In this document: positions 3,001 to 6,000 of the stretch, one piece after another | Position numbering within the stretch: the stretch's first letter is position 1 | Layout of the letters: the number at the start of each line of letters is the position of its first letter | Source of the DNA: a virus | Lineage: Duplodnaviria; Heunggongvirae; Uroviricota; Caudoviricetes | Direction: 5' to 3' (one strand) | Virus record (IMG/VR): IMGVR_UViG_2698536657_000018 | Span: 1 to 9,313 of that record | DNA length: 9,313 nt | Made by a program: the position numbers

Positions 3001-6000
3001 TGGGTTATACGGGAATGATGCAAATATTCTCCAAGATTCATTGTTCACCTCATGTTATGTGACCATGAATATTAATAGCATTGTTATTTTTAAAAGTAAA
3101 TAGCATCGCTATTTCAAAGAGATTAATAATCTTATTAGAATTGAAGGTATGAAAAGAAAACCCCTGTCAGAGATCGACCTGCAAGCCGCCCAGAGACTGA
3201 AAGAAATCTGGACGACGAAAAAAACTCAACTTGGGTTAACCCAAGAGCGTGCGGCAGAAATTCTGGGTTTTTCGACACAAGGGGCAGTAAGCCATTATCT
3301 AAATGGTCAGACACCTTTAAATCTAGAGGCTGTTATCAAGTTCGCTGGGTTGCTACAAGTTCCGCCTGAGTCAATTAGACCAGATATGGCAGACTTGTTA
3401 CGAATTGTAAGGATGTACCCCCAAGAACTGCAGCAGGATAATGTTGTCGCTTTACCCGCAGAGATGGAACAATCGGAAAACGAACTTCCGTTTAATATAG
3501 AACCTATAGAGCGAGATTTGATCCAGACGTTCAGGGCTTTCCCAAAAGAAGACAAAGAGAAAATGCTTAAGGAAATGAAGGAGAAAAAAGAATCAATTGA
3601 AGAAACCGTTGCGCGGTGGCTAGAGGCGCAAAAAGGTCGTCGCGCCTAATCTGAGGAGGTTAGAACATGAGTACAGTCCTTTCCCCGATAATTTCAGAAT
3701 TTGAAACAATCGAACAAGAAAACAGCTATAACGAATGGTTACGCACCAAAGTGGCAGCAAGCCTCGCAGACCCCCGTCCTGCAATTCCGCATGACGAAGT
3801 AATGGCTGAAATGGAAAACCTTATTGCGCAAATAGCTTCGACGAACAGGAGTGAGTAATGCTGCCCATTTTATGGCTACCTTCTGCGCGTGATGATTTGC
3901 GTCAGATCGTAGCCTATATTGCCAAGGAAAACCCTCCCGCTGCACGTAGACTAAAAATACGCATTGAAACATCAGTTTTGTCACTTACTGAACACCCTTA
4001 CCTGTATCCACCAAGCGAAAGAGCTCTAGGCCTTCGTGAGATAGTGACCCATCCTAACTACATAATACTTTACCGAGTAACAGCATCTAACATCGAGATC
4101 GTAAATGTAGTTCACTCACGAAGGCAGTATCCAAACAAAAGCTGTTAATCATTCCTACCAACAACCACCTTCGGGTGGTTTTTTTTCTTACCTCCAAAAA
4201 ACAATAGCATTACTATTTACAGAATAAAATAGCAGTGCTATTGTTTATTCATCACCCACCCTCCCCACAGAACGCAGGGCAATACTTCGAGTTACCAGGC
4301 AGTGGTCAGGGGGTAAGTAGCCAGCCCGAGGCGTAAGAACATGACGGCAGGGTTCAACTTTAATAACTATGCAGCAGGTTTTTGTTCCGCTACCCCGGCG
4401 TTAAGGGGAAATGAGGTCAACATGGATACTATCGATCTTGGCAACAGCGAATCTCTGGTATGTGGAGTATTCCCCAACCTGGACGGCACGTTTACCGCGA
4501 TGACGTATACCAAAAGTAAAAAGTTTAAAACCGAAGCTGGCGCGCGTCGCTGGTTAGCCAGAAACACTAACTGATTAGCACCAGTAAAAACAGGTTGCCA
4601 CTGGTTAATTTACCCTGAAAAGTCAGGGTATAACACGAAAGCGCACGGCGAAGCTCTTTCCCTTAGAAGGCTTGTCGTTAGATTTCTTCGAACGTGCGCT
4701 TCCGGTTGTGGCAATCCGCGAAATGGCGCGGCGGTAAGTATGGCTGGGGTTTCCTCCATTGCTCCAGAAAATGCACCGGGTTGTCAGGTTGACCATACGA
4801 TTAAGTGACAGCCCCGCCACAATACCCATGTGTAGTCTTTGGTGGCATCAGTTCTACTCCGTGACTGCTCTGCCACCCTTTTTAAAGTGAATTTTGTGAT
4901 GCGGTGAATGCGGCTAAGCGCACGCGGAACAGTTAAAACCGTAAAGTGGTCGTTTACGGGGCGTAACGGGCATACTTCTGTATTCCGGCGTTAATTGTTA
5001 ACTGGTTAACGTCACCTGGAGGCACCAGGCACCACATCACAAAATTCATTGTTGAGGACGCGATAATGGAAACGTTATTACCAAACGTTAATACGTCTGA
5101 AGGGTGTTTTGATATTGGTGTTCTGCTCAGTAACCGGGAGTTTACTGAAGATGCCATTAAGATGAGAAAATATGAGCCTTATCTTCTCAATGATAATTCC
5201 ATACTCTCCAGAATTGCCCTTCTTAAACTTGGTATTTTCGGAGGGCAGCAGTGACTTCTGCATTTGCACTGGTGATGACGGTTTTTCTTATAACGGGTGA
5301 GCCACAGAATGTGATTACCGGAATTTATGCCAGTAAAGAATCATGCCTCCGTGCAAGAGACGAGCAAAAAATTTCTGGCGAATGCCTCCCGTTAAAAAAA
5401 GTATCGCTGTACCTGAATAACGAAATACCGGCTGGATAACCCGCCAGCCATATTAACGCCATACCAACGGATTAAAAATGCCAGCAATGGCAGGGATTCG
5501 TTCACCCTGAAATCTGTAATGAGGTTAAAACAAAATGAGTAAAGTCTTTATTTGCGCCGCTATTCCTGACGAACTGGCAACAAGGGAAGAAGGCGCTGTG
5601 GCTGTAGCCACAGCCATTGAAGCTGGCGACGAACGCCGTGCTCGAGCAAAATTTCACTGGCAATTCCTGGAACATTATCCGGCTGCTCAGGACTGCGCTT
5701 ATAAATTTATTGTCTGCGAGGATAAACCCGGCATACCCCGCCCTGCCCTCGATTCCTGGGATACCGAATATATGCAGGAAAATCGCTGGGATGAGGAGTC
5801 AGCTTCCTTTGTACCGGTCGAACCTGAATCCGATCCGATGAACGTCAATTTTGACAAGCTGTCCCCTGAAGTACAGAACGCAGTCCTGGTTAAATTCGAC
5901 ACATGCGAAAACATCACCGTTGATATGGTGATTAGCGCACAGGAATTACTACAGGAAGACATGGCAACATTCGGCGGACATATCGTTGAAGCGTTTATGA

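Follow-up and report, generated by a model that had tools for sequence, protein, structure and literature searches.

A probable lambda-type right operator in the immunity region of a Qin/CP-933P-like cryptic E. coli prophage

The intergenic region between the divergent genes of a Cro-like protein and a cI-like regulator contains two sites of the form AATAGC-N3-GCTATT and, beside them, a palindrome of different appearance, which raises the question of whether the switch region is read by one or by two protein-binding specificities. We analysed this locus within the window, the whole stretch of 9,313 nucleotides of viral DNA, and compared it with 53 related loci. We consider it likely that the region represents the right operator (OR) of a bistable immunity switch of the lambda type, carried by a cryptic E. 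coli prophage that resembles Qin and CP-933P. We read the separate palindrome as, most likely, a third operator of the same family (OR3) that has decayed and that lies over the core of the repressor promoter PRM. The switch proteins and the right operator are arranged as follows.

2778..3041, minus strand: 87-aa Cro-like HTH protein (Pfam HTH_3), positional equivalent of YdaS, Cro and DicC
3149..3649, plus strand: 166-aa repressor with a lambda-CI-type N-terminal domain (residues 2-90) and a PaaR2/DicA-type C-terminal tail
3074..3088: OR1 operator, AATAGC-ATT-GTTATT, 25.6 bits in the weight matrix
3099..3113: OR2 operator, AATAGC-ATC-GCTATT, perfect palindrome, 26.7 bits in the weight matrix
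3122..3136: putative degenerate OR3, ATTAAT-AAT-CTTATT, taking in the 3124-3137 palindrome, assigned by homology with relatives

OR1 (AATAGCATTGTTATT) has one mismatch to a palindrome, and OR2 (AATAGCATCGCTATT) is perfect and grows to a 17-bp palindrome at 3098-3114; both lie inside the 107-bp gap between the divergent 87-aa and 166-aa genes. Reading the sequence confirmed the positions that the first-pass annotation had given for all three elements, and measurement from the centres at 3081 (OR1) and 3106 (OR2) reproduced its spacing of 25 bp. The AATAGC-N3-GCTATT pair is far beyond chance. When up to two mismatches are allowed, the window holds five matches to AATAGCNNNGCTATT where 0.35 are expected, none of 200 shuffles reaches five, and four of the five matches form two pairs, both spaced 25 bp. 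A weight matrix derived from the related loci gives these four sites 25.6-26.7 bits, and the runner-up position anywhere in the window 6.4.

The second pair, which the first-pass annotation had missed, lies at 4203-4217 and 4228-4242, downstream of the parE2-like gene and its terminator and 1129 bp away from OR. Because it sits on a promoter heading the ydfA (DUF1391) and DicF operon, we regard it as the OL/PL equivalent.

3667-3858, plus strand: paaA2-like antitoxin gene (Pfam PaaA2), product 71% identical to CP-933P PaaA2
3858-4148, plus strand: parE2-like toxin gene (Pfam ParE_toxin), product 64% identical to CP-933P ParE2
4163..4190, plus strand: intrinsic terminator from a terminator scan, at the end of the repressor-toxin-antitoxin operon, stem conserved in related loci
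4203..4217: OL1 operator, AATAGC-ATT-ACTATT, 26.1 bits, present in all 53 loci, 2 nt in common with the PL -35
4228..4242: OL2 operator, AATAGC-AGT-GCTATT, 26.7 bits, present in all 53 loci
4216..4244, plus strand: predicted PL/dicBp-like promoter from a promoter scan, TTTACA, 17-nt spacer, TATTGT (TG-extended)
4341-4574: DUF1391 gene (ydfA), from Pfam
4827-4878: DicF

OL2 shares the first 4 nt of the PL -10 and also overlaps the PL spacer, and the PL hexamers are conserved among the related-locus haplotypes compared. The OL regions of the more distant relatives L059, L063 and L068 likewise contain two sites. In Qin, dicBp is repressed by DicA (PMC10448788). The paaA2-like and parE2-like genes would be co-transcribed with the repressor gene.

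Exactly two OR and two OL sites of this strong type are found at fixed positions in 53/53 related loci, with OR1 always at -75 from the regulator ATG. Variable columns make up 3/40 of the outer core, 13/20 of the central 5 bp and 74/211 of the remaining intergenic DNA (Fisher p = 5e-6 for outer core against centre and 3e-4 against other intergenic DNA; the test counts related sequences as independent). Hardly any variation affects the outer bases AATAG/CTATT, and the central 5 bp are free to vary; OR2 occurs in twelve sequence variants across the loci, with differences only in these central positions. A dimeric HTH protein that makes no contact with the centre of its site would be expected to leave such a pattern. 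Of 5426 complete E. coli genomes, 72 carry this immunity type, O104:H4 and O145:H28 strains among them; strains 2009EL-2071 (O104:H4) and JNEC-KY176 are examples of carriers. The deposited phage collection holds no close copy of the immunity region, with at most 12% of positions 2700-4350 covered.

The regulator that probably reads these sites joins parts of two kinds. Its N-terminal domain matches the lambda repressor N-terminal domain in the PDB (E = 1.6e-9), including the N-terminal arm (KRKPL vs KKKPL), and the acidic residues E33 and E37 match E34 and D38 of the lambda activation patch. Residues 123-166, the C-terminal 44, align with PaaR2 80-123 at 50% identity, and residues 107-162 match the DicA C-terminus; the N-terminal DNA-binding domains of the 166-aa protein and PaaR2 do not align. 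The protein is not a whole-length member of the DicA family: it scores 28.7 bits against the family model NF007257 (NCBIfam), whose cut-off is 101, and only the C-terminal 56 residues match. Pfam gives HTH domains only, with no S24 peptidase/autocleavage domain. The deposited phage collection contains no full-length relative, CI N-terminal domains being the only matches. A scan of genome contigs with the N-terminal domain returned a lone locus in a Phlomobacter MAG, which was dropped because no clean translation of its gene was obtained in the expected frame.

The 87-aa protein shares 28% identity with CP-933P YdaS and 56% with the Cro-like protein of the Stx2 phage F039, and a PDB sequence search with it as query gave no match. 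The names ydaS-like and paaR2-like, under which the first-pass annotation had entered the two genes, fit by position; the likeness to PaaR2 is confined to the last 44 residues, and the identity to YdaS is low. The recognition helices of both regulators are near-identical (TQGAVSH in the 166-aa protein, TQGMVSH in the Cro-like protein), so both probably read the same half-site. Given the recurrence of the pair at OL, its conservation in all 53 loci and the lambda CI-type domain of the regulator, the earlier reading of the AATAGC sites as OR-type operators of a cro-like/cI-like switch is supported.

The first-pass annotation had assigned no promoter elements with confidence. We propose the following two.

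3113..3141, plus strand: predicted PRM-like promoter from a promoter scan, TTCAAA (3113-3118), 17-nt spacer, TAGAAT (3136-3141)
3072..3100, minus strand: proposed PR-like promoter, -35 TTTACT (3100 to 3095), 17-nt spacer, -10 TATTAA (3077 to 3072)

Both PRM hexamers are invariant across the 53 loci, and the predicted start at 3148/3149 is the A of the regulator ATG or the nucleotide preceding it. The distance from TAGAAT to this ATG is 7 nt, and a TAnnnT -10 hexamer is found at 6-7 nt in 36/38 family haplotypes; a leaderless regulator mRNA is therefore predicted. Most family members have no SD before the regulator ATG. The palindrome had earlier been placed just upstream of a paaR2 SD, but this SD is doubtful, since the GAAGG in question ends just 1 nt before the ATG and the -10 hexamer recurs across the family. 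In CP-933P, the paaR2 mRNA is leaderless by 5′ RACE, and lambda cI is leaderless too (PMC8630535). The PR assignment is tentative: it is based on position and on homology with PL (TTTACA/TATTGT) and L068 (TTGACA-16-TAATAT), and the promoter scan did not call it because its -10 TATTAA ends in A, without the conserved final T. OR1 overlaps the spacer of the proposed PR and 4 nt at the start of its -10, the PR -35 shares 2 nt with OR2, and the PRM -35 abuts OR2, the centre of which lies at about -43/-42 relative to the predicted PRM start. From PR, the cro-like gene, ydaT and replication genes would be transcribed.

The remaining element, TAATAATCTTATTA at 3124-3137, is a perfect 6+2+6 palindrome. 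Taken alone it is within chance expectation, since perfect 6+6 palindromes with a 0-4 nt spacer arise in 23% of 5000 dinucleotide-preserving shuffles of the intergenic region, which is 74% A+T. The first-pass annotation had read it as a possible site for a second regulator, and hence as a second binding specificity. Developed further, that reading makes the palindrome a separate operator at which a second regulator (the Cro-like protein alone, YdaT, a PaaA2-ParE2 complex or a host factor) controls the regulator promoter independently of the AATAGC sites. Its perfect 14 bp are unchanged in 42/53 related loci and lie over the PRM core, an effective spot for a repressor; its AATA/TATT cores stand 3 bp nearer to each other than those of the main sites, which makes a protein of different geometry conceivable; and YdaS of CP-933P binds the PRM side first (PMC8630535). 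The invariance is equally explained, however, by overlap with PRM, whose hexamers are also invariant, and the frequency of such palindromes in shuffled A+T-rich sequence argues against a dedicated site, as does the lack of any second copy in the window, OL included. In the other 11/53 loci, which carry the same regulators, A3126G or T3127C breaks the palindrome; either change brings the 15-bp frame 3122-3136 nearer to AATAGY and thus to the operator consensus.

Two further features bear on the candidate regulators.

2356..2781, minus strand: YdaT (CII equivalent; Pfam YdaT_toxin), 89% identical to CP-933P YdaT
2771..2788: YdaT operator OM, TTGATT-N6-AATCAA, exact match, at the cro-like/ydaT junction (PRE region)

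PaaA2 reportedly has no DNA-binding domain. YdaT, the only other regulator of this module whose motif has been published, was rejected as the second regulator: its motif, footprinted in CP-933P (PMC9986795), is found at 2771-2788 and has no resemblance to the palindrome. Together with the main-family operators that relatives hold at the homologous position, these observations make a separate operator highly improbable. Inspection of 3117-3148 by eye revealed no IHF-like site.

The comparison with relatives points instead to a degenerate OR3. In L059 and L068, whose DNA-binding domains are 65-69% identical to that of the window regulator, the position homologous to OR3 holds a clear third operator (ATTAGCAATACTATT and AATAGCCTTAGTATT, respectively), both 23 bp from OR2, and in L010 this position reads ATTAGCAATCTTATT. 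In the window, the OR3 centre at 3129 is likewise 23 bp from the OR2 centre, and the site covers the PRM spacer and the first -10 base. We consider a decayed third operator the most likely reading because of these relatives and because the changes that break the palindrome approach the consensus. OR3 fits a relaxed motif with 1 mismatch, and 0.5% of local shuffles contain such a match with the right spacing; the motif was defined post hoc, once the variants had been seen. The strict weight matrix gives no support in the window, where the score is negative (-3.6) and the site would be weak at best and perhaps not bound; the assignment rests on homology with the relatives. In one subgroup (L063, L066, L070 and L071), the best third-site candidate is 20 bp from OR2, not 23 bp, so that the three-site layout differs between family members.

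The low score raises the alternative that the third element is a dead remnant, that OR is effectively bipartite and that 3114-3148 is conserved only as PRM core, with RNA polymerase as the sole binder. The contrast between -3.6 and 25-27 bits for real sites and the five mismatches to the strict consensus are consistent with this, a two-site OL works across the whole family, and promoter hexamers with fixed spacing explain the invariance of 3113-3141. Against a remnant, the right half CTTATT retains the invariant TATT core and resembles the OR1 right half GTTATT, relatives show no changes other than AT to GT or GC at 3126-3127, which approach the consensus, and a relaxed-motif match at the right spacing is rare in local shuffles. 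Cooperative binding from OR2, or looping to OL, can moreover fill very weak sites, as lambda OR3 illustrates. We judge the remnant reading unlikely.

Among the relatives, OR3 decay and toxin-antitoxin presence amount to a single evolutionary event. It is conceivable, if quite improbable, that the decay is adaptive or that the palindrome with a 12-bp core that it created is now read by the Cro-like protein only. Adaptive decay would concern the lineage that joins the repressor gene to a ParE toxin-antitoxin operon: with OR3 weakened, neither the Cro-like protein nor excess repressor could turn PRM off, the labile antitoxin would stay in supply and the switch would be biased to the immune state. 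A palindrome read by the Cro-like protein only would give the two regulators separate control points.

With a decayed OR3 as the preferred reading, OR comprises three 15-bp sites of one family with the half-site AATA(G/A)(C/T) and a 3-bp centre, spaced 25 and then 23 bp. From the sites, their conservation, the protein homologies and the promoter-like hexamers, we infer binding, transcription starts, activation and looping as follows. Dimers of the 166-aa repressor would bind OR1 and OR2, with the PaaR2/DicA-type tail probably mediating oligomerisation, and would occlude PR (-10 at OR1, -35 at OR2), silencing the cro-like gene, ydaT and the replication genes. Repressor bound to OL1 and OL2 would block the PL/dicBp-like promoter upstream of ydfA-DicF with the same geometry. 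Repressor at OR2, abutting the PRM -35, would be placed where lambda CI activates PRM, and a start at the ATG would yield a leaderless repressor-paaA2-parE2 mRNA, as for lambda cI and CP-933P paaR2. The 87-aa protein, because its recognition helix is almost identical to that of the repressor, should bind the same sites and antagonise the repressor. The decayed OR3 over the PRM core would exert at most weak negative control of PRM.

Comparison with lambda shows the same divergent cI-like and cro-like genes, three OR operators of one regular family at 23-25 bp centre spacing that overlap both predicted promoters (OR1 and OR2 strong, OR3 weak), the proposed PR -10 over OR1 and -35 over OR2, OR2 abutting the PRM -35, and OR3 over the PRM core. 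A second cluster, OL, conserved in all 53 loci, lies at a distance on a predicted early promoter, PL, with the same reading direction as cI; the repressor N-terminal domain is a detectable CI homologue with a basic N-terminal arm, and a leaderless cI-type mRNA is predicted. The locus differs from lambda in the half-site (AATAGC vs TATCAC) within 15-bp sites, in having two rather than three OL sites and a degenerate OR3, and in carrying a ParE-type toxin-antitoxin pair in place of rexAB and YdaT as the CII equivalent. Instead of a LexA/S24-type autocleavage domain for SOS induction, the repressor has a short PaaR2/DicA-type tail and therefore should not be directly induced by RecA. In our analysis, it appears to work like the lambda switch but is not a canonical CI.

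The prophage CP-933P (Sp12 of E. coli O157:H7) shares the gene order ydaT, ydaS-like gene, divergent regulator, paaA2 and parE2, homologous YdaT, PaaA2 and ParE2 proteins, the exact YdaT operator, the regulator C-terminus, the -10 hexamer 6-7 nt before the regulator ATG and a PL with operators downstream of parE2. For that prophage, EMSA, DNase I footprints and 5′ RACE have been reported, together with a leaderless paaR2, PL operators and the cross-repression that PaaR2 and YdaS exert (Jurenas et al. 2021, PMC8630535). The DNA-binding parts, in contrast, are swapped: the regulator N-terminal domain is unrelated to that of PaaR2, the Cro-like protein diverges from YdaS, and the operators are altogether different, the published consensus being GTTTAGTAA rather than the AATAGC type. 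No match to the AATAGC motif exists in the CP-933P locus, and the window OR contains no GTTTAGT repeat. The locus appears to be a hetero-immune variant of the CP-933P-type module.

The Qin DicA/DicC system likewise has a short repressor that is not RecA-cleavable, with a similar C-terminal region, a divergent Cro-like partner and a repressor-controlled promoter upstream of ydfA and DicF. The 166-aa repressor, however, falls far below the DicA model cut-off, with its C-terminus only matching, and here the repressor gene is separated from the dicBp-like promoter by a toxin-antitoxin pair; the Qin promoters have three operators each (PMC10448788), compared with two at OL here. The closest deposited phage is the Stx2-converting phage F039 (LC710660), in which the CI N-terminal domain is 54% identical to that of the window repressor, AATAGTCTAGCTATT occupies the OR2 position and a weaker site follows 23 bp downstream. 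F039 differs in its 239-aa CI with a long C-terminal domain, a canonical GGAGG SD before the ATG, just one strong motif match and no toxin-antitoxin pair.

The locus reveals no new regulatory principle; it adds an uncharacterised immunity specificity to a class of switch already known from lambda, CP-933P and Qin. The analysis provides an operator map for one prophage immunity type, with three OR and two OL sites, three promoters and a repressor mRNA that is probably leaderless, and this immunity type would control a ParE-family toxin and the DicF division-inhibitor operon. It also shows a route of diversification, in which DNA-binding parts and operators are swapped as one cassette and the toxin-antitoxin pair, YdaT and the YdaT operator are retained, so that hetero-immunity with CP-933P is predicted.

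Reading the sequence confirmed the positions of three palindromic sequences noted in the first-pass annotation, all of which lie inside the 107-bp gap separating the genes of two HTH proteins, an 87-aa Cro-like protein and a 166-aa regulator in the repressor position:

2778–3041, minus strand: 87-aa HTH gene (ORF and domain search)
3074–3088: OR1, AATAGCATTGTTATT (sequence read)
3099–3113: OR2, AATAGCATCGCTATT, perfect palindrome, 17 bp when extended (3098–3114; sequence read)
3124–3137: third palindrome, TAATAATCTTATTA (sequence read)
3149–3649, plus strand: 166-aa HTH gene (ORF and domain search)

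Searching the window for AATAGCNNNGCTATT with up to two mismatches gave five matches against 0.35 expected, a number reached by none of the shuffles; the operator motif is thus far beyond chance. The same search found a second operator pair that had been overlooked, OL1 (AATAGCATTACTATT, 4203–4217) and OL2 (AATAGCAGTGCTATT, 4228–4242), 25 bp apart like OR1 and OR2. A weak match with two mismatches, ATTTGCGCCGCTATT, is located at 5550–5564, 15 nt inside the ORF of the 823-aa exonuclease; with 0.35–0.8 matches of this kind expected by chance per window, a single one is unremarkable, and L001, a near-identical copy of the window, lacks it.

Among 5426 complete E. coli genomes, 72 carry the immunity region, with identities of 81–99.6%. 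We compared 53 loci, comprising the window, eight E. coli copies and 44 IMG/VR copies. Each of them retains AATAGC-type operators, with exactly two OR sites (−75 and −50 from the ATG) and two OL sites; two OL sites are also found throughout the family when relatives are compared. Variable columns were counted across unique haplotypes by position class:

Variable columns by position class
Outer bases AATAG / CTATT: 3 of 40
Central five bases: 13 of 20
Rest of intergenic DNA: 74 of 211

Fisher tests yield p = 5e-6 for core versus centre and p = 3e-4 for core versus rest, values that are indicative only because the sequences are related. OR2 alone occurs in 12 variants, whose differences are confined to the centre.

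The third palindrome, TAATAA-TC-TTATTA, had been proposed as a possible site for another regulator, which would add a second binding specificity to a 100-bp switch. By itself it does not exceed chance: 23% of dinucleotide-preserving shuffles of the intergenic region (74% A+T) contain a perfect 6+6 palindrome with a 0–4 nt spacer. Another perfect palindrome, AGATTA-A-TAATCT (3120–3132), overlaps this one, and together with OR2 they bring the 107-bp gap to three perfect 6+6 palindromes, a count seen in 1.5% of shuffles. No partner of the third element turned up in a search of the whole window, OL included. Conservation in related prophages, a check proposed in the first-pass annotation, likewise argues against a separate site, as the element is altered in 11 of the 53 loci (ATTAGCAATCTTATT in ten, ATTAGTAATCTTATT in one), and these changes break the TAATAA/TTATTA symmetry while bringing the 15-bp frame 3122–3136 closer to AATAGY. 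A profile-based scan yielded relatives with 57–69% identical DNA-binding domains and alignable OR DNA, and a third operator is present in L059–L062 and L068. In the distant relatives L059–L062, OR consists of AATAACATAGTTATT, AATAACGAAGCTATT and ATTAGCAATACTATT, followed by TAGAAT, 7 nt and ATG; in L068 the order is ATTAGCATTGCTATT, AATATCAAAGCTATT, AATAGCCTTAGTATT. In both cases the distance from the second to the third site is 23 bp, as in lambda. Based on these homologous third sites and the changes toward AATAGY, we read ATTAATAATCTTATT at 3122–3136 as a decayed OR3. It has one mismatch to the relaxed family motif, a match seen at that spacing in 0.5% of local shuffles. Its score on the strict weight matrix is negative, so OR3 is weak at best, and the chances that the putative site is still bound in vivo are about even. 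The layout is not perfectly uniform, as the best third-site candidate lies 20 bp from OR2 in one subgroup of relatives (L063, L066, L070, L071). Two specificities within one 100-bp switch are not supported.

Both regulators are consistent with a shared specificity. A PDB search matched residues 2–82 of the 166-aa regulator to the N-terminal domain of lambda repressor (E = 1.6e-9), and the alignment takes in the basic arm and the acidic residues that correspond to lambda E34 and D38. In its C-terminal part the protein matches the DicA tail and phrog_5736, and a Pfam search detected no S24 peptidase domain. In the Stx2 phage F039 (LC710660), the CI N-terminal domain shares 54% identity with residues 2–90 and the Cro-like protein 56% with the 87-aa protein; the OR of this phage carries AATAGTCTAGCTATT. 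The window's two regulators align over the HTH (33% identity, 63 residues) and have almost the same recognition helix, TQGAVSH in the regulator and TQGMVSH in the Cro-like protein. This near-identity is at present the strongest reason to think that the two proteins recognise one half-site, like CI and Cro of lambda. The tail, with the rough consensus FxAFPKEExEKxLKEMxEKKExxEExVARWxxAQK, is found on repressors with different DNA-binding domains. In a 240-aa relative without an S24 domain (L059, 1501–2223; N-terminal domain 69% identical), a second HTH-like segment separates the CI-type N-terminal domain from the PaaR2/DicA-type tail. In L008 (E. coli Z1323CEC0012, 1760–2261), the regulator gene is annotated as broken into a partial HTH pseudogene and a separate 'regulator' ORF, with operators, paaA2 and parE2 intact; this natural repressor-defective copy might show the effect of derepression.

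The operators overlap or adjoin promoter-like hexamers, listed here together with the DicF gene downstream:

3072–3077 and 3095–3100, minus strand: proposed PR, TTTACT (3100 to 3095), 17 nt, TATTAA (3077 to 3072), same geometry as PL
3113–3118 and 3136–3141, plus strand: predicted PRM, TTCAAA, 17 nt, TAGAAT (promoter scan); both hexamers invariant in the 53 loci
4216–4244, plus strand: predicted PL, TTTACA-17-TATTGT; OL1 overlaps the −35 by 2 nt, OL2 covers the spacer and 4 nt of the −10
4827–4878, plus strand: full-length DicF sRNA (Rfam RF00039, 61 bits), 3′ of the PL-like promoter and a DUF1391 (ydfA-like) gene

The PR assignment is tentative because its −10 lacks the final T; L068 reads TTGACA-16-TAATAT at this place. 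The predicted PRM start, 3148/3149, coincides with the A of the regulator ATG and would place the OR2 centre at −42/−43, where lambda CI sits when it activates PRM. A TAnnnT hexamer precedes the ATG by 6–7 nt in 36 of 38 unique family haplotypes, and in most of them no SD-like sequence separates the two (GCCCCT, CTGAAT, GCGCTC and others). This arrangement strongly suggests that the regulator mRNAs of the family are leaderless, as shown for paaR2 and lambda cI (PMC8630535). GAAGG, 1 nt from the ATG and previously read as an SD, would then belong to the PRM discriminator region; as an SD it could be relevant only where transcription reads through from a PRE-like promoter.

The parE2-like gene stops at 4148, an intrinsic terminator follows at 4163–4180, and the second pair lies shortly downstream of both. 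In lambdoid phages this place is taken by OL and PL, and the promoter-like element at 4216–4244 also corresponds to dicBp, which DicA represses in the Qin prophage (PMC10448788). Given DicF downstream, the OL operators probably control a cell-division-inhibitor operon, like DicA in Qin. In some IMG/VR copies (L046, L047, L050, L052, L012, L044) the OL1–OL2 distance is 24, 26, 27 or 28 bp, because the A-run in the PL spacer differs in length. This would shift the −35/−10 spacing and may represent real promoter tuning or inactivation, or a homopolymer assembly error. The mechanically called ORF at 4341–4574 encodes 77 aa, and the RefSeq DUF1391 gene in L001 (10723–10875) corresponds to its last 50 codons only; since the Pfam match is confined to residues 29–75, the gene probably starts within this ORF.

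The window is a cryptic prophage of the lambdoid type from E. coli. Strain JNEC-KY176 is 99.9% identical across 2700–3700, with both regulators annotated merely as 'helix-turn-helix domain-containing protein'. Gene order is replication P, DnaT-like, ydaT and cro-like on the minus strand and repressor, paaA2, parE2, ydfA, DicF, exonuclease, xis and int on the plus strand. In the O157:H7 prophage CP-933P, PaaR2, YdaS and YdaT are the CI, Cro and CII equivalents; PaaR2 and YdaS each protect the intergenic region in footprints, paaR2 is transcribed without a leader, an operator-bearing PL is located 3′ of parE2, and the operator consensus is GTTTAGTAA (PMC8630535). Compared with the CP-933P locus (L002), YdaT, PaaA2 and ParE2 are 89%, 71% and 64% identical, whereas the Cro-like protein shares 28% identity with YdaS, the regulator aligns with PaaR2 over its last 44 residues only (50% identical; the N-terminal domains do not align), and the operators differ, the AATAGC motif not being found in L002. 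We therefore consider this a hetero-immune cassette inside the same module, and the mosaic across 2356–4148 looks like an immunity-cassette exchange with junctions near the ydaT start and inside the regulator gene. An exact TTGATT-N6-AATCAA inverted repeat, the YdaT footprint motif (site OM) of CP-933P (PMC9986795), spans the cro-like stop and ydaT start (2771–2788), so the PRE/CII-like part of the module is conserved despite the swapped Cro/CI parts.

At the sequence level, the analysis shows five sites of one family in a 3 + 2 layout, the way in which these are conserved, a CI-type DNA-binding domain whose recognition helix recurs in the Cro-like partner, promoter-like hexamers in lambda geometry, and the operons downstream. 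By analogy to lambda, CP-933P and Qin, the repressor on OR1/OR2 and OL1/OL2 would shut PR and PL and perhaps activate PRM, with little or no negative control of PRM from OR3. The Cro-like protein would compete for the same sites, oligomerisation would proceed via the repressor C-terminal tail, possibly with OL–OR looping over 1129 bp, and YdaT would act at its exact operator at 2771–2788 (PMC9986795). Searches of the available literature found no description of this operator sequence or of the combination of a CI-type N-terminal domain with a PaaR2/DicA-type tail. Switches of this kind are textbook, and for CP-933P, the nearest sister, a detailed experimental analysis exists; the novelty lies in the specificity, with its own operator sequence and a CI-type N-terminal domain joined to a PaaR2/DicA-type tail.
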